Below are positions 7,625 through 20,600 of a stretch of 64,000 bases of DNA, in pieces. This DNA is from Gammaproteobacteria bacterium (GTDB taxonomy: Bacteria; Pseudomonadota; Gammaproteobacteria; UBA4575), in contig OZ244982.1 in assembly GCA_965223115.1 (NCBI GenBank), forward strand, positions 2,557,636 to 2,621,635. Reading direction: 5' to 3'. Under the pieces are notes generated by a model that had not been told where the DNA came from, did no database searches, and saw nothing but the letters and a program-made list of their open reading frames with translations. A program made the translations under genes and the position numbers. Each line of letters starts with the position of its first letter. Position 1 is the stretch's first letter.

Positions 7625-7782
7625 CCTGCACTTGTTAAAAAGAAATAGTTGAATGTTTATGTGACAAAGCGTGTCTACTTTGGTGGCAGGCATAGGTTTT
7701 CATGCTAGGTAAACTTATACTAATAATATTGAGCTCAAATTTAAATTGATGCCGCAATAACAAAACAGATGGGAGAGCTTCG

Positions 7783-9750
7783 ATGAAGATAATCAAGTAT
7801 TTAATTATTGGTATCGTTTTACTGGTTGTTATTTTTATCGGTGCTGCGATCTTTTTTGTTTCTACTTTTGACCCCAATGCCTATAAAGAACAAATTGTAG
7901 CGAAAACCAAACAAGCCACTGGACGTGATTTAACCTTAGCTGGGGATATTAATCTTTCTTTGTTCCCATGGTTAGGGTTTAACTTGGGCAGCACACAATT
8001 TGGTAATGCTCCTGGGTTTGGTGATGCTGCGATGGCCAGTGTTGATGAAGTAGATGTACGGGTCGCATTAACACCATTATTTAGTGGACAAGTGCAAGCC
8101 GCTAAAGTGAAATTGCATGGTTTAAAGGTAAACTTACATAAAAATGCACAAGGCGTAACCAACTGGGACGATCTACTAAGTGAAACGGAACCTGGAAGTG
8201 ATGAATCTGAAGAGAGTGGCGATTCATCTGAATTTGAAATCGCAGTTAATGGAGTTGAGATAACCGATGCAGAATTATTTTGGCAGGATGACCAAGCCGG
8301 CACAAAAATTCAAATTGCCCCGCTGAACTTAATAACAGGTGAAGTGGTTGATGGTAAGCCTACCGATATAAATCTTGATTTAAAAATGAAGAATGCATCG
8401 CCACAAGTCGACGCTGCATTAACGCTTGTAAGTAAAGCCACTTTCGATTCTAAACAACAGACATTAAATCTTGCTGGCTTAGATGTTGATTTGAATGCGA
8501 GTGGTGAACCTTTTCCAAATGGCGCGTTAGATTTGCAGTTGGATTCTGATGTAAAGGGCAATTTCAAAACACAAAAATATGCACTACAAAACACTACTAT
8601 TAAAATAAATGGTACGGGTGATGCCTTTCCAGAAGGAAAATTAGATGCCGTACTGCAAACTGAAATAAATGCGGATTTGGCAAATGAGGCGTTAAATTTG
8701 TCTTCTTTGGTTGTTTCCATGTTAGATACGAAACTAACTGGAAATGCATCGGTGCAGTCTTTTGATAAACCTAAAATAAAATTTTCTTTGGCATCAGACA
8801 CTTTGGATCTAGATAAGCTTTTACCTACTTCCAGTGCAGAAGAAAAAACAGACAGCACGCCAGCCGATGAAAATGAACCCATAGAACTACCAACGGAAAG
8901 CATGCGCGATCTTAATGTGAAGGGTGATATTGCCGTAGGTACTTTAATTATTTCAGGTATGACCATGACGAATGTAAAGGCCACCATATCTGCACAAAAT
9001 GGCTTGTTACAAATTACTCCCATGTCCATGAATCTTTATGATGGCACCATGAAGGGCAAAGCGAGTGTCGATGTGCGGAGTAAAACCCCAAAATACGCTT
9101 TAGCAACGGATTTAGCCGGTGTGCAAATTGATAAATTAAGTGTTGATTTTTTAGGTGAAAAACAAGCCTATATGCGTGGTATCAGTAACCTTTCTTTGGA
9201 TATTAATACAGCGGGTAATAGTGTTGCAGAGTTAAAACGGGCGCTGGGAGGAAATGTAAAATTAAATGCAGGCGATGGCGCATTGCGTGATAAAAAACTC
9301 GCTGCTAACGTTGAAAAGGCAGTGGCCTTTATGAAAGGCCGCGAGCCGAAACCAACCGGAGAAGAAATTGTTTTCGATAAATTATTTGGCACTTTTAACA
9401 TTACTAATGGATTATCTGATAATAAAGACTTTAAATTAGACACACCATTAATTTTTGCCAAGGGTGAAGGTCAGGTAGATATCGGTCAATCCAAAACTGA
9501 TTACAAAATTTCGATTGGTTTGTCTGAAGAACCTGGTAAGTTTGCGATTCCTATCACCATCAAAGGGCCCTTTGATGATCTAAGCTATGGCGTTGATTTA
9601 CAAGCCGCATTGAAGGCCAAGCAAACCGCAATTGTTGAAGAAAAGAAAGAAGAACTAAAAGAAGAGATTGAAGAGAAAAAAGCAGAGAAAGTGGAAGAGC
9701 TAAAAGAAAAACTAGGTGACAAGTTAAAAGATAAATTAAAACTATTCTAA
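7783..9750 (+). CDS. AsmA-family outer-membrane assembly protein
   Basis: 655 aa. N-terminal TM anchor, long beta-rich body, K/E-rich coiled C-terminus. Confidence 0.75.
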   Translation: MKIIKYLIIGIVLLVVIFIGAAIFFVSTFDPNAYKEQIVAKTKQATGRDLTLAGDINLSLFPWLGFNLGSTQFGNAPGFGDAAMASVDEVDVRVALTPLFSGQVQAAKVKLHGLKVNLHKNAQGVTNWDDLLSETEPGSDESEESGDSSEFEIAVNGVEITDAELFWQDDQAGTKIQIAPLNLITGEVVDGKPTDINLDLKMKNASPQVDAALTLVSKATFDSKQQTLNLAGLDVDLNASGEPFPNGALDLQLDSDVKGNFKTQKYALQNTTIKINGTGDAFPEGKLDAVLQTEINADLANEALNLSSLVVSMLDTKLTGNASVQSFDKPKIKFSLASDTLDLDKLLPTSSAEEKTDSTPADENEPIELPTESMRDLNVKGDIAVGTLIISGMTMTNVKATISAQNGLLQITPMSMNLYDGTMKGKASVDVRSKTPKYALATDLAGVQIDKLSVDFLGEKQAYMRGISNLSLDINTAGNSVAELKRALGGNVKLNAGDGALRDKKLAANVEKAVAFMKGREPKPTGEEIVFDKLFGTFNITNGLSDNKDFKLDTPLIFAKGEGQVDIGQSKTDYKISIGLSEEPGKFAIPITIKGPFDDLSYGVDLQAALKAKQTAIVEEKKEELKEEIEEKKAEKVEELKEKLGDKLKDKLKLF

Positions 9751-11807: not shown

Positions 11808-12009
11808 GGCCAGGATGGCGGGGTCGCGTAGCGGCAAGGTGGAGAGTGGCTGAAAATCCTATTTTCAGTCTTAACAGTAAACAAGGGAAATGTAGTTCTT
11901 AATAATTTGGCCAGGATGGCGGGGTCGCGTAGCGGCAAGGTGGAGAGTGGCTGAAAATCCTATTTTCAGTCTTAACAGTAAACAAGGGAAATGTAGTTCT
12001 TAATAATTT
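11808..12009 (+). repeat. Two perfect tandem 101-bp repeats abutting tRNA-Phe, each starting with the tRNA 5' acceptor sequence GGCCAGG and carrying a CTGAAAATCC...ATTTTCAG hairpin
   Basis: 11808-11908 and 11909-12009 are identical by eye. A diverged third copy at ~11700-11800 has the same GACTGAAAAT..ATTTTCAGTC hairpin. Confidence 0.8.
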
Positions 12010-12085
12010 GGCCAGGTAGCTCAGTTGGTAGAGCAGTGGACTGAAAATCCTCGTGTCGGTGGTTCGATTCCGCCCCTGGCCACCA
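12010..12085 (+). tRNA. tRNA-Phe (anticodon GAA)
   Basis: 76 nt: GGCCAGG acceptor stem, anticodon loop CTGAAAA, T-arm GGTTCGATTCC, 3' CCTGGCC-A-CCA. Close to E. coli tRNA-Phe. Confidence 0.95.
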
Positions 12086-12091
12086 GTTAAA

Positions 12092-13126
12092 TCAATTATT
12101 TACTACTAAACGTAGAGTTTGATTTTTAGGCGACTGTGACGAAATTGTGCCATCGATGTTTTGTGCCGCACGTTGCAAATGTTCACCTGCAAAATGTGCA
12201 TAGCGCAATACCATCTCCATACAACTCCATCCACCGAGTTCCATTAGTTCTTGTAAACTGGTTCCATTTTGTACGTGCCATGAAGCCCAAGTATGACGTA
12301 AGTCATGCCAATGAAAATTTTCAATGCCGGCACGCTTACATGCTTTTTTAAATGCTGCGGTGGTGGTGCGTTGAACGGGTTTACCTTTATAGGTAAACAC
12401 ATATTTTTCATGCACCCCTTTGCATTCATGTAATACTTGCAAAGCATCTTGATTCAGTGGCACCGTAATCGCTTTTCTTGATTTGGATTGATCGGGATGG
12501 ATCCACGCAACATTGCGTTTAACATCTACCTGATCCCATTCCAAATAACTTACATTACGTTGACGCAATCCCGTTGCTAATGTGAATCGTGCCATGAACG
12601 CTAAATGCGTCGGTAACTCTCGTATCAATTTTCTTGCTTCCTGTTGCGTAATAAAACGCACACGTTTTTTAGGTTAACGAAAAAGTCTAATACGTGGAAT
12701 GTGATCAATCCACTCCCAATCATCTCTTGCGGTTCGTAGAATGCTACGAATGAGAGCAAGATAACGGTTTGCAGTAGAAGGACTGGCTTCGTGCTTTTTT
12801 ATTTCAGCAATCGTATCAATCAAATCACGATTAATTTCATCGAGATAATATTGACCTAAATATGGATCGAGCCATCGTAGCTTGCCTTTATCTTTTTCAA
12901 GATCTGCTTTGTATTCTTTTTCTCGCAACCAACGAACGATGGCTTCCTGCCAAGTCCGTCTAGGTTTTTCGCCGAGATTGTGGGTTCGCCACAACTCAGC
13001 TTTTAATGTGTCATGGTATTCTTGGGCTTGTTTTTTGTCTTGAGTCCGAGCAGATTGACGTATTCGTTTTCCACTCGGTGACGTGAAACACACCCACCAG
13101 ACTTCGCCGCGTTGATAGAGTGACAT
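12092..13126 (-). pseudogene. int: P4-type tyrosine integrase interrupted by a single in-frame TAA
   Basis: Two ORFs (12674-13126 and 12092-12661) are in the same frame, separated only by TAA at 12674-12676 (…PRIRLFR*PKKRVRFITQQ…). The C-terminal part carries the tyrosine-recombinase catalytic region (HDLRHTWASW…LGGW…Y). It lies immediately 3' of the tRNA. Confidence 0.8.
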
Positions 13127-13347
13127 AGTACAGTCTCCATTGTTGAGTCACTTAGCGACGCTTTCCCAACACCAGAATAATCTTGTTTAAGGTAAGCGAC
13201 AAGTTCGGTTATTAAAAACACCCAACGTCTACCAGGTTTTGTAGCGTTAATTTCCTTATTTTTGGCTTTACGACGCAAGGTGGCCGTAGACATATGTAGA
13301 AACTGAGCGGCTTGCTCTAAATTTAATGTCTGCTCTGTAGGCTTCAT
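13003..13347 (-). CDS. AlpA/Xis-like HTH DNA-binding protein (excisionase/regulator)
   Basis: MKPTEQTLNLEQAAQFLHMSTATLRRKAKNKEINATKPGRRWVF matches the AlpA/MerR-like excisionase HTH. The 3' end overlaps the integrase start in another frame, so the true stop is uncertain. Confidence 0.55.
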   Translation of the reverse strand: MKPTEQTLNLEQAAQFLHMSTATLRRKAKNKEINATKPGRRWVFLITELVAYLKQDYSGVGKASLSDSTMETVLCHSINAAKSGGCVSRHRVENEYVNLLGLKTKNKPKNTMTH

Positions 13348-13442
13348 ATTTACGAATAGTAGGTAATAAACACCCCCTACTATACTCAAAATAAAGGGGT
13401 ATTAAATACCACCCTATTGTTTTAATTAACTCACTGAATACT

Positions 13443-13760
13443 TTACTTCAACTCAGGTGATCTTTTTCCTGGTATTTCTCCTTTTACCGCTTTCCAATAA
13501 TTAGAAACTTTCTTTACTAAATCCCATGCTACTGATTTATCCGCTAATTCACCTTTATCTGGCATATCTTTACGAATATCAATTCCTAGAATTTTTTCGT
13601 ACTCTCGAATGCTTTTTTTATCGTGAATAAGCAATAGTACTTTCCAGCCAACATGTTGCCCTAGGTGCAACATTCCTATGGCGGTTTCTAGTTTTTTAGC
13701 ATTACCTTTATAACGCTTAATTGCTTTGTTAACAGTAGAATGAATTTCTCTCTGATTCAT
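13443..13760 (-). CDS. Hypothetical island protein (105 aa, basic)
   Basis: ORF only; no recognisable motif. Confidence 0.35.
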   Translation of the reverse strand: MNQREIHSTVNKAIKRYKGNAKKLETAIGMLHLGQHVGWKVLLLIHDKKSIREYEKILGIDIRKDMPDKGELADKSVAWDLVKKVSNYWKAVKGEIPGKRSPELK

Positions 13761-14096
13761 AAATTTTTATGTAGGAATGATTAATTAATATAAAAATATT
13801 TTGTAATGTATCCAATCACTTACGATTGTCTCGTCGAGATGTGTCCTTAAGTCAAGTCTAGGTAAAAAAGGCTGGCTTCTCACTTTTCTCAAGACATAGC
13901 TATACCATTAAACAAAAGAAAATCACCGGGCCTGCGATTCAAACTTCTCTTTTGTCAGTAGGGTTATCTACTCCATTCTGTGCTCATGCGTTGCAATTCC
14001 ACCAAGCTATCTTGGCTTATCCACATTTGGTCTTTAAACCGAATAGGCGTGGCTATAGTAGTTCTTTTCAGTAGGGGAGGTCAAATACCTGCCTCA

Positions 14097-14208
14097 CTTG
14101 CCATGGGGGTCCACCACTGTGCTGATAGCGGCACGACCCTAGGCTATAAAAATATTTAAGCTCGGGCCGCTAGCTATCACTAGCACAGCGGCCCGCCCCA
14201 TGAGCAAG
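14097..14208. promoter_or_regulatory. ~112-nt GC-rich nested imperfect palindrome, directly upstream of a consensus TATAAT (14220-14225) and the 14265 gene
   Basis: Outer arms CTTGCCATGGGG (14097-14108) / CCCCATGAGCAAG (14196-14208). Inner arms CTGTGCT..TAGCGGC (14117-14132) / GCCGCTA..AGCACAG (14166-14188). ~32-nt AT-rich loop. Confidence 0.4.
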
Positions 14209-14264
14209 CTTGAGTTTAGTATAATGCTCCCAAATAATTTGTAGAGGCATAGAATTTTAGGGGA

Positions 14265-15050
14265 ATGGAACATATGGAGGGATTATTAGAATTATTTAAA
14301 AATGAGTATCTATCTATCTTATTCGGTGGTCTTGCAGGCGTTATTACAGCATGGATTACACAGCGTGTACTAAATAAACGTGGGTTATTTAGCTATTTTG
14401 TTACTCACAATAGAGTTGGTATAACAACAGAAGATACAACATTTGGAAATGTTTCTGTTACATGGAATGGCAGTTCAATAAGGCATCTATTTTTTTCTAT
14501 AATAGAGCTAACTAATAATAGTTTAAATGATTACGAGAATGTAATTATAAGAACGTATACTGATAATACAACTCTGCTTTCAGAATCAACACAGATTATT
14601 GACACACCCAATATTCTAGAGTGGTCAGAAAAATTTAAAAAGCAATTACACGTAGAAGAAGGGGCAACAGCAACACCTGCACAAAACGAAATTTATAATA
14701 GCCAGCGTGAATATCTAATTCCTGTATTTAATCGAAGTCAAAAAATTAATATTAGCTATTTGAATTCTGCCAACTCTGAAGAAACTCCTAGTATATGGTT
14801 ATCCGCTACAGTTAAGGGAGTAAAAGTAAAGTTTCGTCAGCCAGTCCCCCTAATTTTAGGTGAATCTCAACCTTTAGCCGCATTAGTAGGTGTAGTAATT
14901 GGGTTGCTTTCTCTTATCCCGCTTGTATTATTAGTTTCAAATCCATGGGTTATAGCTCTTCTAGCTATCGTTTATGGTTTTATAGCCCAGCTACCAGGCG
15001 CACTATTTATTAAAACGGTACGAAAAATTAAGGACGTTATTGGTGGATAA
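14265..15050 (+). CDS. Membrane protein: N-terminal TM, central soluble domain, C-terminal 2-TM hairpin (SLATT-like architecture)
   Basis: 261 aa. Hydrophobic N-terminus (LSILFGGLAGVITAWI) and C-terminus (LAALVGVVIGLLSLIPLVLLV / VIALLAIVYGFIAQL). No recognisable enzymatic motif. Confidence 0.45.
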   Translation: MEHMEGLLELFKNEYLSILFGGLAGVITAWITQRVLNKRGLFSYFVTHNRVGITTEDTTFGNVSVTWNGSSIRHLFFSIIELTNNSLNDYENVIIRTYTDNTTLLSESTQIIDTPNILEWSEKFKKQLHVEEGATATPAQNEIYNSQREYLIPVFNRSQKINISYLNSANSEETPSIWLSATVKGVKVKFRQPVPLILGESQPLAALVGVVIGLLSLIPLVLLVSNPWVIALLAIVYGFIAQLPGALFIKTVRKIKDVIGG

Positions 15051-15335
15051 TTTACATGGATAGAGAAAATATTGTGTATGCAAATTCTTCCTAAGCGGAA
15101 ATTCTATTTTTTTGAGCCTGGTGAAGTAGAATGATTTTACGAAGAAGTGGCTCTAGACCCTTGCATAATAAGGCCTTGAAAGAAAAAATGAATAATTTCA
15201 ATTATATTTAGACTGCAAATCAATTACCACAATACTTGAAATACAGTGACTTAATACCCATATTCAATAAAATGCATCTTATAGTTGATAATTGGATATT
15301 GAACACTTTCAAAATGATAGTAAACTAATAGTTAA

Positions 15336-15398
15336 TCCCCCTTGTCACTTCTGGTGACAAGGCGCAAGGCTCCTTCGGGGGCCTTTGCTATTTTTGGG
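15336..15398 (+). promoter_or_regulatory. Two tandem GC hairpins plus T-run immediately 5' of the NYN gene RBS (terminator/attenuator-like)
   Basis: CCCCCTTGTCAC-TTCTG-GTGACAAGG (15336-15361) and CGCAAGGCTCC-TTCG-GGGGCCTTTGC (15363-15388), then TATTTTTGGG. The RBS GGGAG follows at ~15396. Confidence 0.35.
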
Positions 15399-15416
15399 AG
15401 TGGGGAATTAATAGTA

Positions 15417-16130
15417 ATGAGAACGAATATCTATGTAGATGGTTTCAACCTCTACTACCAGGCACTAAAAAATTCAAAGTATAAATGGCTTAATGTAAGG
15501 AAACTGTGTGAAGTTGCGTTACATGAAGAATTTCCTGATCTTAATTACGGATACACTTGTTATTTTACTGCACGCGTAAAACCAACGGTTCAAGACCCAA
15601 ATAAACACGTTCGACAAGACGTATTTTTTCAGGCACTTAAAAACCAAATTCCTAATTTTTACAAAAAAGAAGGGCATTTTTTAGAAAAGCCTAAAAAAGC
15701 ATCGACGGCTACATTAAGAGAACTATCAAGACTTAATCCTCCGAAAAAACAATCACCAATTCGTGTTGCACCTAAAAAAGGAAGTCCTTATTTTGCGACA
15801 TTAGCGGACGAATATCAGACTTTGTATGTACGATCACGAGAAGAAAAAGGTTCAGATGTTAATCTCGCAGTGTCAATGTTACAGCATGCATGGCTCGATT
15901 ATTTTGAGTGTGCAGTTCTAATCTCTAATGATAGTGATTTGGTAGAGGCAGTTCGATTGACTAAAAAACAAAAGAAAAAAGTTATTTTACTTACTCATGA
16001 AAATACAGCTGCAAAACAATTACGCAAATATGTAAGTAATGTTGTTACTTTCAATGCAACTGAGTTAGCCAATTCTCAAATGCCAGATCAGATTCCTGGC
16101 ACAAAACTGCATAAACCCAATGAATGGTAA
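15417..16130 (+). CDS. NYN-domain (LabA/PIN-like) predicted ribonuclease
   Basis: Start at MRTNIYVDGFNLYY (GGGAG RBS upstream); the ORF track begins at 15342. Motifs YVDGFNLYY…EKGSDVNLAVSML…LISNDSDL are characteristic of NYN/LabA nucleases. Confidence 0.7.
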   Translation: MRTNIYVDGFNLYYQALKNSKYKWLNVRKLCEVALHEEFPDLNYGYTCYFTARVKPTVQDPNKHVRQDVFFQALKNQIPNFYKKEGHFLEKPKKASTATLRELSRLNPPKKQSPIRVAPKKGSPYFATLADEYQTLYVRSREEKGSDVNLAVSMLQHAWLDYFECAVLISNDSDLVEAVRLTKKQKKKVILLTHENTAAKQLRKYVSNVVTFNATELANSQMPDQIPGTKLHKPNEW

Positions 16131-16680
16131 TGATTATCAACGGCTCGCAAATGCCTTACAACAAATAGAAGAAGCTAGAGTGAGAGATACTAATCAAATT
16201 GCATCTGAAGTAAATCGCCTATCACAATTACATGCAACTTCGGTTTCTCGTCAACAACTTGATGCAATTAAAGAAATAATTTCTCACACTTATGGAAAAT
16301 CGCAAACATATGCAAATTTCATAATGGTTGGTGGATATGCAGCATTCTTTACAATGTGGGTTACCGTAAAACCGGATCTACCTAAATTAGTAATGCTTAT
16401 TGCTGGCTTGCTAATGACAGTATCTGCAGTACTTTTTGTAGTAGCAGAGGTGCAGAAAATGATAAATACAGGGCTTCATTTTCGAAAAATTCAGGAAAAG
16501 TTGAATGTTGATCCATCTGCAAATTTTATCGAAGAAATACAGTCTATCGAAAAACAATTTTCTGAGCAACAGTATAAATTTTGGCTCATTCTTTTTTATC
16601 CGAGTTTAATTTGTGGTGTTCTAGCTGGTTCATTGCTTGCGGGGTGTTTTATGTATGAACTTATTATGGAACTAATTTAA
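16120..16680 (+). CDS. Small membrane protein (2-3 TM), translationally coupled to the NYN gene
   Basis: 186 aa. Its ATG overlaps the NYN stop in ATGAATGGTAA. Hydrophobic helices FIMVGGYAAFFTMWVTV / LVMLIAGLLMTVSAVLFVV / LICGVLAGSLLAGCF. Confidence 0.5.
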   Translation: MNGNDYQRLANALQQIEEARVRDTNQIASEVNRLSQLHATSVSRQQLDAIKEIISHTYGKSQTYANFIMVGGYAAFFTMWVTVKPDLPKLVMLIAGLLMTVSAVLFVVAEVQKMINTGLHFRKIQEKLNVDPSANFIEEIQSIEKQFSEQQYKFWLILFYPSLICGVLAGSLLAGCFMYELIMELI

Positions 16681-16745
16681 TTAAACATATACAAGCACTA
16701 CTGCCAAATTTTTAAACAATAAAAATACGAAAATTAAATACTCAT

Positions 16746-17174
16746 ATGAACATACCAAGTTTGCCAACAGATAATCTTTATAAATTTATGGCATTGAGTG
16801 GCATATTCATTGCGGTTTTTGGTTATTCAGTATATTGGATTCAAGGAGGCAGAACTCAGGAAATAGTTGAAGAGCTCTCAGGGCTAGAAACGCGTTTGGA
16901 AGTGATTATTAAAAGCCCTATAGTCACTGGAGATTCAAGTATAGATACTGAGAAAGACTTAGAAGCTATTGCAAAAGTAATGCAATTAACAAAAGAATTC
17001 GATAATCTTCAAAAGGAAAGAGTTGTTTATCGAAATTTTTCAATCTTTTGTTTGGTAGTTGGGAGTATATTAAGCATATCAGGGTTTAGTTTATGGTATT
17101 TCCGAGTACAAAAATTTCAAGATATGTTATTAAGAAAAGAAGCGTTGTCAGTGATTAATGAGCAAGAAGAATGA
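16746..17174 (+). CDS. Small 2-TM membrane protein
   Basis: 142 aa. TM1 ALSGIFIAVFGYSVYWI, TM2 FSIFCLVVGSILSISGFSLWYF, with a charged linker between. Confidence 0.5.
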   Translation: MNIPSLPTDNLYKFMALSGIFIAVFGYSVYWIQGGRTQEIVEELSGLETRLEVIIKSPIVTGDSSIDTEKDLEAIAKVMQLTKEFDNLQKERVVYRNFSIFCLVVGSILSISGFSLWYFRVQKFQDMLLRKEALSVINEQEE

Positions 17175-17278
17175 TTTCAAATAAGTAGATATAAACTGCC
17201 ATAAGCTCTTAATACTTGGTAAATGACCGCAGCTGGACTATTGGTTGAAAGCAGTTATTGTTGAACTGTGCCAATATT

Positions 17279-17413
17279 GTGTCACACTGAAGTACATCAC
17301 AATGTCCAGTGTTGTATGTTTCTGACACAATAAAGAGTGAGAAAGCATCGCAAGTAACGGATTTTATTTAATAGAGGATATATACAGATAAACTGAAAAT
17401 CCTCACTACGATA
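17279..17413 (+). repeat. Island-internal junction repeat (copy 1); its end mimics the tRNA-Phe anticodon-arm segment CTGAAAATCCTC
   Basis: GTGTCACAC…TGTATGTTTCTGACACA…AAGTAACGGATTTTATT…CTGAAAATCCTC. ~80% identical by eye to 23428-23556. Confidence 0.7.
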
Positions 17414-17670
17414 GTTCATTTTCTATTCAGTGAATTAACATTCAACTTTATTTCAAGATAAAATAATTATTATTTTTGTGAATTATTTTTCAGTAGCTGA
17501 ATAACAAAACTCACCTCTAATCAAAAACTAACTTCACTTTCATAATTATTGAATCAATGTTTCGTCAAAACATTGACATTGAAAATGTTTTTCACTTTCG
17601 TTTAAGTTAATAAATACGACATATTGATTCATTATATTGTAACAATAAAATTTCTTTTGGGGGATATTCC

Positions 17671-20600
17671 ATGTTATTTCGTGCATTTGCCGCGTTGCTT
17701 ATTTGTGCGCTTCATTTAAAAAAACCTTCCGCTGTATTTGCTACTTTATTTGCTTTATTTGTAGTGATGAATATTCATCACAGTGCATACGCAAACTCAT
17801 GGGTATGCGAAAAAGTTTTTGTTGGACCCTCAGGACAAAGCTATAGCGCATGTAATCATGCCGCAGATGCATGTATGTCAGAAGGGGGTATTACTTCACC
17901 TGGATTTTGTTACACAGTACTCTCGAATGGTTATTCAGCATGTCCCCGACCTGCTGATGGTATTTATCAATGGGTCACACCTGATGATACTTCCGGTACT
18001 GCAGTACGCCACCACTATGCGTGTTATTTAGATGCAAGCTGTCCTGCTCCTTTCATCGATTTTGGTAGTGGCGCGTGTTCTCCTGAGTATGATCCAAGTA
18101 AAAACTTAGGCCCATCAAGAGATGTTTGCTTACTAGAAAACCCCATCCATCCTGCCACTGGGAATAAATATCAAACCGAAACTGATTATGTGGCCGCTAC
18201 GGGAGGACTACGTTTTACTCGTTATTACAACAGTCAATCAACCAAACACTTTAATGAATCCTTTGGGGATAAATGGAGTGCAGAATATTTTCAACATTTA
18301 AAAATTGTTGCAGGGGATTTTATCAATGTGTATCACGCTACTGGACGTAAAGATATGGTGCAATGTCCCACCGTGGGAAGTGACTGTCTCACCGATAACG
18401 ATGTTACATTTGCAATAAAGAAAACCTCATCTGGATATACTCTTACACGTGAAGATAATGTTGTTGAAGACTATGATTCTAATGGTACGTTGTTATCCAT
18501 TACTAATACTCACGGACAAACGCAGACTTTAACGTATAACGGTACCACAGGATTATTGGAAACTGTCACAGGACCTTTTAATCGCACGCTGAGTTTTACT
18601 TACGATGTAAACAATCGTGTGATTACGATGATAGATCCAGATAATGACATCTACACCTATGCCTATACTAATGATGTTCTTACTTCTGTTACTTATCCAG
18701 ATAACAACAGTAGAACCTATCATTATGAAGATACCAAATGGGTGCATCATTTAACCGGAATTACAGACGAGAATAACAATCGCTTTTCTACCTATGCATA
18801 CAATACAGATGGTTTAGCCACATCCAGTGAACATGCAGGAGGTGCCAATCGAGTCGATGTTGTCTACAACACCAATGGCACCACGACAGCAACGGATGCT
18901 TTAGGTGCCAGTAATACTTATACGTTTGAATACAAACTTGGTGTTTCCAAAACAACTGATATATCAGGCGCACAATGTGGCAGTTGTGGTTCACAAGCCC
19001 AAGCGGCCACCTATGATACCAATGGTTTTGTCGCCTCACGTACCGATTTCAATAGTAATGTCACCACTTATGTCCATAATAGTCGGGGTCTGCAAACTTC
19101 ACGCACTGAAGCTTCGGGTAGCAGTAAAGCCAGAACTATCACCACTGAATGGCATTCCACATTACGTTTGCCTACTAAAATAACTGATCATGGGAAAGAG
19201 ACCACTTTCACATACAACAGTACAGGTGCATTACTCACTCGCACTGAAAAAGATTTAGCGAATAACAATACGCGCACCACCACGTATACCTATGATAGCA
19301 ATGGCAATGTACTGACCATCAATGGGCCGCGTACGGATGTCACGGATACCACTACGTTCACCTACAACAGTAGCGGTAATCGTACCTCCATGAAAAATGC
19401 TCTCAATCAAACCACGAACTATACTTCCTATGATGTGCATGGTCGGCTACTTTCCATGACCGATCCCAATGGCGTGGTTACGAGCATGACTTATGATGCG
19501 CGTGGCAGAATTAAAACAAATACTGTTGCAGGAGATACATCTTCATTTGACTATGATGCAGCAGGGAATCTCACCAAGATTACATTACCCAATGCAAGCT
19601 ATCTTTCTTATACCTACGACAATGCTCATCGTTTAACGCAAATCAAAGACAATCAAAATAATAAAATTATTTACACATTGGATAATGATGGCAATCGCAC
19701 CCAAGAAGATGTGAAGGATGCAAGTGGTACGTTGCGTCGTACCCAAAGTAGAGTATTTGATCAACTCAGCCGCATGACGCAAAGCATTGGAGGCGTGAAT
19801 CAAACCACCGTGTTTGGGTATGATGCGAACGGCAATCAAATCTCTGTACTCGACCCACTGAATCGAAATTCCACCTCAAGCTATGATGCACTGGATCGAC
19901 TCATTACCTCAACCGATCCAAATAGCAATAACACATCCTATGCCTATGATGCTCGTGACAACCTCACCAGTGTTACCGATGCCAGAAACTTAGTGACGAC
20001 CTATTCCTATGATGGGCTCGATAACCTCACACAACTCGTCAGCCCGGATACTGGAACCACTACTTACACCTATGATGATGCCGGCAACCGACTTACCCAA
20101 ACGGATGCAAGAAATAAAACAACGACCTATACGTACGATGCACTAAATCGACTTACGAGTATTACGTATTCGGACACCACATTAAATGTGGCCTATACCT
20201 ATGATGCAGGTACGAATGGTAAAGGCCGACTTACTAGTATGACTGATGCCAGTGGCACGACCACATATGCCTATGATGCAAAAGGGAATGTAGTTACCGA
20301 GACGAAAACCATTAGTAGTCAAAATTATGTAACGAGTTATCAATACGATGACGCGGATAATCTCACACAGATCACTTATCCAAGTGGACGTACTGTTGAT
20401 TATTCGCGTAATAATATTGGGCAAGTAACACAAGTCAATACAACCTTTAACGGCAACACCAGTGTCATTGCCAACTTAATAAGTTACCTTCCATTCGGGC
20501 CGGTCAAAAGCCTAACGTTAGGAAGTGGATTAGTGACAACACTTACCTACGATCAAGACTATCGGCTCACTGATACCGTAACGGGTAATAGTATTCAGTC

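Follow-up and report, generated by a model that had tools for sequence, protein, structure and literature searches.

The stretch of DNA analyzed here, 64,000 nucleotides (nt) of contig OZ244982.1 from a gammaproteobacterium of the UBA4575 lineage (hereafter the window), carries between positions 14265 and 17174 four consecutive open reading frames (ORFs). One of these is predicted to encode an NYN-domain RNase, and the others encode the small membrane proteins A, C, and D (Table 1). A preliminary description, made from the sequence alone, had proposed that the four genes form a single defense or abortive-infection module. All four ORFs are indeed found where that description had located them, each on the plus strand. 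The RNase prediction also holds, since the protein passes the threshold of the Pfam NYN family PF01936 (45.4 bits vs. a cutoff of 24.2; E 1.5e-11; residues 141–209). The overlap reported between the NYN stop codon and the start of C is real and spans 11 nt (ATGAATGGTAA, 16120–16130), and there is no Shine–Dalgarno sequence upstream of the C start codon. D is preceded by a 65-nt AT-rich spacer, which likewise has no Shine–Dalgarno sequence. The interval between A and the NYN gene holds a terminator-like hairpin and, overlooked in the description, a conserved small RNA (sRNA) motif.

Very probably, the four genes are not a module, and the NYN gene is linked instead to this sRNA. Comparison of related loci shows the conserved, putatively functional unit to be the two-hairpin RNA motif at 15326–15393 together with the NYN gene at 15417–16130. 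The pairing holds across phyla, plasmids, and prophages.

A two-hairpin RNA motif upstream of the NYN gene

The motif is ∼70 nt long and comprises two hairpins, H1 and H2, followed by a run of U residues. Over ∼145 nt upstream of the NYN start codon, the window and the locus of its closest NYN homolog (L001) share ∼85% nucleotide identity, compared with 54% amino acid identity for the NYN proteins. The differences between the two copies of H1 are compensatory changes. The motif has a folding z-score of −3.3, and a GC-rich hairpin and U-run at 15366–15395 form the sole terminator-like site between 13700 and 17700. No tandem repeats were found in this same interval, and the motif occurs once in the window.

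When the upstream regions of 81 loci were scanned for hairpins, nearly all showed the same architecture. The consensus reads A-Y-CCCC, H1 (with a UUCG or UUUCGA loop), GGG-YGC-R, H2, and YUGC-UUUUU. When 52 copies were aligned with MAFFT, which is blind to structure, RNAalifold returned a consensus of 15 base pairs, and compensatory double changes are present at 14 of these. The covariance model R1 was built from this alignment. In copies aligned to R1, 95% of cells are paired and all 15 pairs exhibit double changes, with 296 double-change cells observed versus 88 ± 9 in shuffled controls and 42–74 in slid controls. The MAFFT result is the cleaner evidence of covariation because the other alignment was fitted to R1. 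G–U pairs are frequent, being present in 8 to 18 of 82 sequences at five of the pairs.

The motif appears to be undescribed. Among the 4227 covariance models of Rfam 15, only the tRNA model matches the window and nine other loci, and a search at E ≤ 10 of positions 7700–8100 of locus L025 yielded only a chance-level match. Our literature search found no paper that links bacterial NYN proteins to an RNA partner. We also considered whether the CCCCC tract could pair with a G-rich ribosome-binding site of the NYN gene. This anti-Shine–Dalgarno idea was rejected because GGGG is located near the start codon in only 12 of 62 loci.

Immediately upstream of the motif in the window lies a promoter-like element. 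Both of its hexamers are shared with L001, and the spacer between them varies. Across the collection, a sigma-70 promoter scoring at least 9 of 12 accompanies 47 of 81 motif copies, compared with 1.3% of random 60-mers. In 40 of those 47, the −10 hexamer ends 8–17 nt upstream of the CCCC tract, an arrangement seen in 0.5% of random 60-mers. Given this fixed distance, the transcript would start a few nucleotides upstream of H1 and stop at the U-run, for a length of ∼70 nt. The comparison shows that a dedicated sigma-70 promoter usually precedes the predicted RNA, whose end is marked by a terminator-like hairpin and U-run. In the majority layout, which includes the window, the NYN gene has no space for a promoter of its own and would have to rely for its expression on transcripts that read through the sRNA terminator.

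The NYN family and its association with the motif

The start codon of the NYN gene is assigned to the ATG at 15417 by an alignment of 28 family members (A1), from which the protein begins MRTxIYVDGFN. A longer ORF starting at a TTG codon at 15342 was rejected, as the family alignment backs the ATG. In the same alignment, aspartates D8, D147, D172, and D174 are invariant, and the window protein keeps all four. E142 is conserved in at least 90% of the family and E143 is invariant; the window protein has both. The family has terminal motifs of its own (MRTxIYVDGFNLYY at the N terminus and SQLPxPIPGTxIxKPxxW at the C terminus). A search with E ≤ 1e-3 returned 5782 clusters of homologs, most of them 205–215 amino acids (aa) in length. 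A profile search of the PDB at E ≤ 0.01 found no relatives of the family, and neither Pfam nor PADLOC matched the window protein to ToxN or AbiQ.

The preliminary description could not match the genes to a named system. For the NYN protein this was wrong, since PADLOC model PDLC04163 for HEC-09 matches it with an E value of 1.7e-35 (120.5 bits); the match falls into two parts, on either side of an insertion of ∼30 aa. This insertion is common only to the window protein and its closest homolog (P0002, 54% identity). A second match is to phrog_7929 (2.4e-39), whose function is unassigned. HEC-09, which belongs to a set of nine "Hma-embedded candidate" systems, consists of a single NYN-domain gene and carries three aspartates like those of MARF1, to whose structure 6FDL the model was aligned (Payne et al., bioRxiv 10.1101/2024.01.29.577857). 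The window gene was not found inside an Hma (helicase-methylase-ATPase) or other multigene defense system; its flanks are A, C, and D.

NYN genes of the HEC-09 type are found on 121 plasmid records as well as in prophages and viral contigs. In a Mycobacterium prophage, the gene is located between the integrase and the immunity repressor. Plasmids of 3461 bp from Escherichia coli and Serratia carry NYN and a VbhA antitoxin as their sole annotated genes, and these tiny replicons offer a convenient experimental system. This sporadic distribution over plasmids, prophages, and variable regions, together with its listing as a candidate defense gene in PADLOC, bears out the earlier view that the NYN gene is not a housekeeping gene. 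Some sources label relatives of the protein as "LabA/DUF88 family," which would suit a housekeeping LabA-type RNase whose place on the chromosome is conserved. However, all-against-all clustering of the neighbors found no family conserved across 80 species, the window copy resides in an island, and the protein scores 13 bits against NCBIfam TIGR00288, whose cutoff is 178. The lack of synteny effectively refutes the LabA explanation, to which we give almost no credence.

To place these observations in context, the NYN loci comprise 80 genomic loci from 80 species, taken with 8-kb flanks, and 76 loci from viral contigs, or ∼160 in all. With the loci of the other gene families, 232 loci (2.2 Mb) were fetched and analyzed by tblastn, all-against-all clustering of neighbors, and profile hidden Markov models (HMMs). 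The R1 motif adjoins the NYN gene in 79 of 82 genomic NYN loci. It was found neither in 18 loci lacking NYN nor in the rest of the 64-kb window (1.27 Mb in total), and it is likewise absent from 295 kb of control loci of the A family. In the independent viral set, ∼40 loci have the motif beside NYN; nearly every locus whose NYN protein reaches 30% identity to the query is among them, and hardly any locus with a more distant NYN protein. Thus, across the ∼2.2 Mb searched, the motif is confined to NYN loci, among them a Phaeobacter plasmid and a Mycobacterium prophage. The NYN leader of one of the small E. coli plasmids (L230, NZ_CP063347.1, 3461 bp; 780–1571) contains both H1 and H2 along with an additional, inserted hairpin; R1 misses this variant.

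In ∼90% of the loci, the motif and the NYN gene share a strand, and the motif is located 5–35 nt upstream of the start codon, with no space for a second promoter. Other arrangements also occur. The motif is located upstream of NYN on the opposite strand in six acidobacterial loci (L060, L067, L068, L082, L084, and L085) and in L170. These divergent copies have a near-consensus promoter, which in L068 consists of TTGACG, a 16-nt spacer, and TATAAT. In L073, the three viral contigs L174–L176, and the Mycobacterium prophage locus L232, the motif is convergent and directly follows the NYN stop codon. Divergent and convergent copies cannot serve as a cis leader of the NYN mRNA, and the association there looks like that of an sRNA gene with an RNase gene. 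Three loci have two tandem copies upstream of a single NYN gene (L052, 6883–7097; L080, 7807–7986; L154, 3242–3376), and in L052 and L080 there is a promoter-like site for each copy. Such tandem copies recall the repeat expansion of type III antitoxins.

The other three genes do not share this linkage. Profile HMMs and tblastn found no relatives of A or D near any of the ∼160 NYN genes, and a relative of C near only one (L015, an alphaproteobacterial metagenome-assembled genome). No C-like gene follows the closest NYN homolog in L001, and 50 of 81 NYN loci lack any small ORF with at least two transmembrane (TM) helices within 1.5 kb. Conversely, neither NYN nor other partners were found in 60 A-family loci, seven D-family loci, or five loci of close C homologs. 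A, the sRNA–NYN pair, C, and D are therefore distributed independently, and they are best viewed as neighboring cassettes in this genome, not as one system. Genes may be tightly spaced within an island, and may even overlap, without forming a system.

Membrane proteins and the island that carries them

The preliminary description had spoken of three proteins with two TM helices each, which is approximate. D does have two such helices. The C-terminal helical hairpin attributed to A is also present (residues 202–260), but hydropathy and the AlphaFold2 model indicate in addition an N-terminal TM helix (14–36) that had been missed and a beta-sandwich (40–190). C has a long N-terminal coiled-coil helix followed by approximately three hydrophobic helices (63–86, 89–110, and 153–180). 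The proposed likeness to SLATT proteins did not hold up. At E ≤ 0.1, no SLATT profile of Pfam matched A, C, D, or 30 members of the D family, and none of PADLOC matched these proteins or 35 members of the A family. Furthermore, A, C, and D have no consistent matches in Pfam, PADLOC, NCBIfam, or PHROG. D-family matches to LmuB, JetC, and PbeC were dismissed as coiled-coil noise.

A is confidently modeled as a membrane-anchored beta-sandwich, with a predicted local distance difference test (pLDDT) score of 93.8, and has only generic structural neighbors. The family has 439 representatives when clustered at 50% identity. Its members are solitary genes with varying neighbors, housekeeping genes included (60 loci). 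In Methylobacillus methanolivorans, an A-family gene (L095, 7001–7777) directly follows Zot at the end of one of several tandem integrated inoviruses, and so at least one member of the family is accessory cargo of a filamentous phage. In separate metagenomic contigs, other A-family genes directly adjoin Shedu SduA (L139, 4890–5933), a TIR-pentapeptide gene (L131, 6923–8047), and HicB (L097, 8158–8496). The A family may itself be an unrecognized solo defense or exclusion gene.

D has invariant N-terminal residues LPTDNLYKF and a coiled coil between its two TM helices. We found 34 homologs, a match to phrog_19745 (4.6e-5), and seven loci in which D is a lone gene. Across the family (alignment A11), an N-terminal LPTDNLYKF(M)ALSG and a C-terminal GFxLWYxRVQKYQD flank a coiled coil of ∼40–150 residues, an architecture to which no database family corresponds.

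C is far rarer, with only three close homologs among 5.8 billion clusters. Genes for NYN, A, and D are all absent from the loci of these homologs (L002–L006), and searching metagenome and viral contigs with an alignment of C brought up no further C-family loci. The AlphaFold2 model of C is all-helical with a pLDDT of 71.6, which is too uncertain for a useful structure search. The more distant relative in L015 is a 157-aa protein with 34% identity (E 3e-12; HMM 6e-57). Its gene is 530 nt downstream of an NYN gene, in convergent orientation, and lies beside a HicA/HicB pair; the NYN protein there is only 38% identical to that of the window. C-family genes adjoin HicA or HicAB in two unrelated contigs (L003, 1495–1704; L015, 10155–10897).

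The sporadic and solitary distribution of A, C, and D, in prophages and beside toxin–antitoxin (TA) or defense genes, fits that of uncharacterized accessory membrane proteins of mobile elements. Apart from the translational coupling of C, we found no evidence that any of the three acts with the NYN protein.

The island itself is well supported. ARAGORN, Pfam matches, and direct repeats confirm the earlier placement of the four genes in an integrase-bearing tRNA-Phe island next to an Rhs gene. The attachment (att) repeats and homologous right ends indicate that the island is a tandem composite. Unit 1 (∼12070–17421, 5.3 kb) contains, besides the four genes discussed here, the integrase, the HTH_17 gene, and a 105-aa ORF, whereas unit 2 (17422–23573) contains the Rhs gene and a 114-aa immunity-like ORF and lacks an integrase. 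Each of the two downstream att copies is preceded by ∼125 nt of right-end sequence, and the two right ends are 80–86% identical. Within them are TGTGACAC/GTGTCACA inverted repeats, possibly arm sites for a recombinase. The integrase occupies one frame with an in-frame stop after codon 150 (...RIRLFR*PKKRVRF...), and its N-terminal ORF has weak Pfam matches to integrase N-domains. The gene is probably a pseudogene, as judged from the sequence, though a sequencing error could also explain the stop. With this stop, unit 1 is probably immobile.

Table 1. Features of the window and two rearranged motif copies from other loci
Feature	Position	Strand	Remarks
sRNA promoter-like element	15299–15326	+	−35 TTGAAC, 15299–15304; −10 TAAACT, 15321–15326
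Two-hairpin sRNA motif	15326–15393	+	∼70 nt; covariance model R1, 67.1 bits, E 8e-16; single match in the window
H1	∼15339–15362	+	
H2	∼15364–15388	+	then U-run 15389–15396, ending 20 nt 5′ of the NYN ATG
Protein A	14265–15050	+	261 aa; ORF list
NYN (protein B)	15417–16130	+	predicted RNase of the HEC-09/phrog_7929 family
Protein C	16120–16680	+	186 aa; ORF list
Protein D	16746–17174	+	142 aa; ORF list
tRNA-Phe (GAA)	12010–12085	+	ARAGORN; Rfam tRNA, 68 bits
att core, 29 nt, CTGAAAATCCTCGTGTCGGTGGTTCGATT	12041–12069	+	inside tRNA-Phe; repeat family D2
Tyrosine integrase, interrupted	12092–13126	−	Phage_integrase 2e-33 (C-terminal ORF)
AlpA/HTH_17-type small DNA-binding protein, excisionase-like	13003–13389	−	Pfam HTH_17, 2.5e-10
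Internal junction	17267–17421	+	∼125-nt right end homologous to 23421–23524; families D2, D3, D6
Degenerate att copy	17393–17421		72% identity
Rhs protein	17671–23067	+	1798 aa; unit-2 cargo with immunity-like ORF to 23381
Perfect 29-nt att repeat	23545–23573	+	outer right end; family D2, 100% identity
Divergent motif, L068	7859–7929	−	
Convergent motif, L232	3899–3974	−	abuts the NYN stop codon

Evidence that the surroundings are a defense island is thin. Besides NYN, PADLOC matched no defense family among the genes tested in or just beyond the island. The one match, outside the island, is to a generic OmpA/MotB domain.

The Rhs protein matches RHS_repeat (4.5e-88), the RHS core, DUF6531, and Golvesin_C. 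The three Golvesin_C domains lie at approximately residues 1250–1560, with the YD-repeat shell on one side and the RHS core on the other. The C-terminal toxin domain of the protein has no Pfam match. The 114-aa ORF overlaps the 3′ end of the Rhs gene and resembles an immunity gene. A degenerate partial copy of tRNA-Phe at 11900–11980, ∼100 nt upstream of the real gene, has TAATAATTTGGCCAGG and a 66%-identical anticodon-arm segment in common with it; the copy is not called by ARAGORN and could be a remnant of an earlier integration. Beyond the island, direct repeats with a 33-nt period (26384–26694) lie inside an ORF (26267–26815) and would encode a protein of 11-residue repeats. This ORF adjoins an OmpA/glycine-zipper lipoprotein-like gene (25462–26136).

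Function, alternative explanations, and known systems

The interpretation that we favor, and consider probable, is that the region is the cargo of a decayed island and consists of independent accessory cassettes, one of which is an sRNA–NYN pair laid out like a type III TA locus. In ToxIN, transcription from a promoter supplies an RNA antitoxin, which binds the endoribonuclease toxin and inhibits it, and read-through into the toxin gene is restricted by a terminator. By analogy, the promoter in the window would yield mostly the short sRNA, and occasional read-through of the terminator would provide a little NYN mRNA, such that a potentially toxic RNase remains scarce relative to the RNA. The sRNA could then act in trans on the NYN protein as an inhibitor, an antitoxin, or a specificity cofactor, as in ToxIN-like loci, and could also throttle NYN expression in cis. 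If the labile RNA were lost, for example through phage shut-off of host transcription or through plasmid loss, the RNase would be freed. In this genome only, C would be translated by coupling to NYN and may be a recruited local partner. We put forward the antitoxin-like action of the sRNA tentatively, as something that may well prove otherwise. Also possible, and held with slightly greater reserve, is the broader proposal that the pair represents a new and widespread class of RNA–protein TA or abortive-infection loci, in which a nonrepetitive sRNA and an NYN nuclease are arranged as in type III systems.

Several observations weigh against this interpretation. The window promoter is weak, scoring only 8 of 12. 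In most loci the RNA is located in the NYN 5′ leader, where a purely cis role would be equally explanatory. The published account of HEC-09 reports that a representative tested with its native upstream region gave no protection against any of the coliphages tried (bioRxiv 10.1101/2024.01.29.577857), and a defense or abortive-infection role for NYN is therefore hypothetical. The neighborhood samples for C and D are small (five and seven loci, respectively). In addition, C is near NYN in two of its approximately five distinct contexts (the window and L015). Given the rarity of C, the 38% identity of the two NYN proteins, and the differing orientation, this exceeds chance expectation, and C may be more than a bystander. 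Finally, the pair differs from type III systems in having a single two-hairpin unit and not an array of 34–36-nt repeats, and an NYN/PIN-like fold and not that of ToxN/AbiQ, CptN, or TenpN.

Alternative explanations for the RNA element must also be considered. One is that the two hairpins serve only as a cis leader of the NYN mRNA, forming an attenuator or an autoregulatory stem-loop with no action in trans. RNase III, RNase E, and Regnase-1 autoregulate their own messages, and Regnase-type and other eukaryotic NYN/PIN-like RNases recognize RNA stem-loops. The usual placement of the motif on the NYN strand just before the start codon and the terminator-like character of H2 and the U-run agree with such a role. 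However, the motif and its promoter are also retained in divergent and convergent positions, outside the NYN mRNA, and tandem copies have a promoter each. We regard an exclusive cis-leader function as possible yet doubtful, and the cis-leader and sRNA roles are not mutually exclusive. It is very improbable that the hairpins act as DNA, for example by offering a site of recombination or nicking through which the NYN cassette is mobilized. Such a function could account for the sporadic presence of the cassette in many replicon types, for the occurrence of the motif in either orientation relative to NYN, and for the sharp upstream limit, ∼145 nt from the ATG, of the sequence that is conserved in both L001 and the window. 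The sigma-70 promoter at a fixed distance on the motif strand and the U-run are features of transcription, though, and the frequent G–U pairs fit an RNA, not a DNA structure. We noticed neither target duplications nor inverted repeats in the flanks, without a systematic search for them.

Two further explanations concern the membrane proteins. The original proposal of one defense or abortive-infection system would make these proteins SLATT-like pore effectors controlled by, or controlling, the RNase. The genes are co-oriented and tightly spaced in a mobile island, with the 11-nt overlap of NYN and C; the NYN family is a PADLOC candidate; and A-family genes elsewhere adjoin Shedu, TIR, and HicB genes. 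Yet the gene set recurs in none of the ∼230 related loci, and the same is true of the pairings A–NYN, D–NYN, A–C, A–D, and C–D. There are no matches to SLATT or other effector families, a terminator-like hairpin and a separate promoter stand between A and NYN, and D has its own AT-rich spacer lacking a Shine–Dalgarno sequence. We therefore judge the one-system proposal improbable. A more restricted version, in which the sRNA, NYN, and C act together, C serves as a membrane anchor, sensor, or second effector, and A and D are bystanders, has somewhat better prospects and is still rather unlikely. The stop/start overlap without a Shine–Dalgarno sequence implies obligatory translational coupling, and the presence of the rare C family beside NYN in L015, in another orientation, suggests two independent associations. 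On the other hand, 158 of ∼160 NYN loci have no C relative, the closest NYN homolog among them, and three distinct contexts of close C homologs have neither NYN nor the sRNA motif. C relatives also adjoin HicA toxins, and co-location in a hotspot of accessory genes may explain their proximity to NYN.

The sRNA–NYN interpretation has consequences beyond this genome, where the copy of the motif is a typical one. The NYN family is among the commonest orphan nuclease families of mobile elements, and a near-constant sRNA companion suggests a concrete mechanism for it, namely, that of an RNA-controlled RNase. If so, assays of the gene by itself may mislead. An apparently uncatalogued RNA motif is also added to the RNA–protein modules of mobile elements. 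If the proposal of a new TA class is true, then this class is present in thousands of protein clusters, in at least eight bacterial phyla, and in small plasmids and prophages, and the copy in the window has, in addition, acquired a membrane protein that is translationally coupled to it.

Comparison with known systems helps to delimit what is present in the window. The island resembles other tandem integrative islands at tRNA genes in its tRNA-Phe site, adjacent tyrosine integrase, AlpA-type gene, direct repeats, and two units with similar right ends; it differs in that the integrase is interrupted by a nonsense codon and the second unit has none. The membrane proteins are like the SLATT and other two-TM effectors of CBASS, Thoeris-like, and retron systems in their small size, in their paired TM helices, and in being encoded close to a nuclease gene on a mobile island. 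In contrast, the architectures of A (TM, beta-sandwich, hairpin) and D (TM, coiled coil, TM) are distinct from those effectors, and A, C, and D have no conserved sensor or nuclease neighbor.

With HEC-09, the window gene shares the HMM match, a single NYN protein of ∼200–240 aa, the conserved aspartates, and the sporadic occurrence of an accessory gene. It differs in not being embedded in Hma, in bearing the ∼30-aa insertion, and in having an RNA partner, which the available portion of the HEC-09 account does not mention (bioRxiv 10.1101/2024.01.29.577857). An NYN catalytic domain with an acidic pocket is common to the window family and to MARF1, Regnase-1/ZC3H12A, KHNYN, bacterial YacP/Rae1, and LabA, but the window family has its own terminal motifs and is devoid of accessory RNA-binding domains.

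A parallel in layout is provided by the type III TA systems ToxIN, CptIN, and TenpIN. The sRNA of the window family, unlike theirs, can be divergent or convergent to the RNase gene. The locus is not filed as a member of type III because it has neither tandem repeats nor a ToxN-family protein. A promoter, a structured small RNA, an intrinsic terminator, and an endoribonuclease gene expressed by read-through follow one another in both, and both are found on plasmids and in prophages. The order of small RNA gene, terminator, and endoribonuclease gene is seen in the window and in most of the 79 motif-bearing loci. By this analogy, the sRNA–NYN locus may work like a type III TA system.

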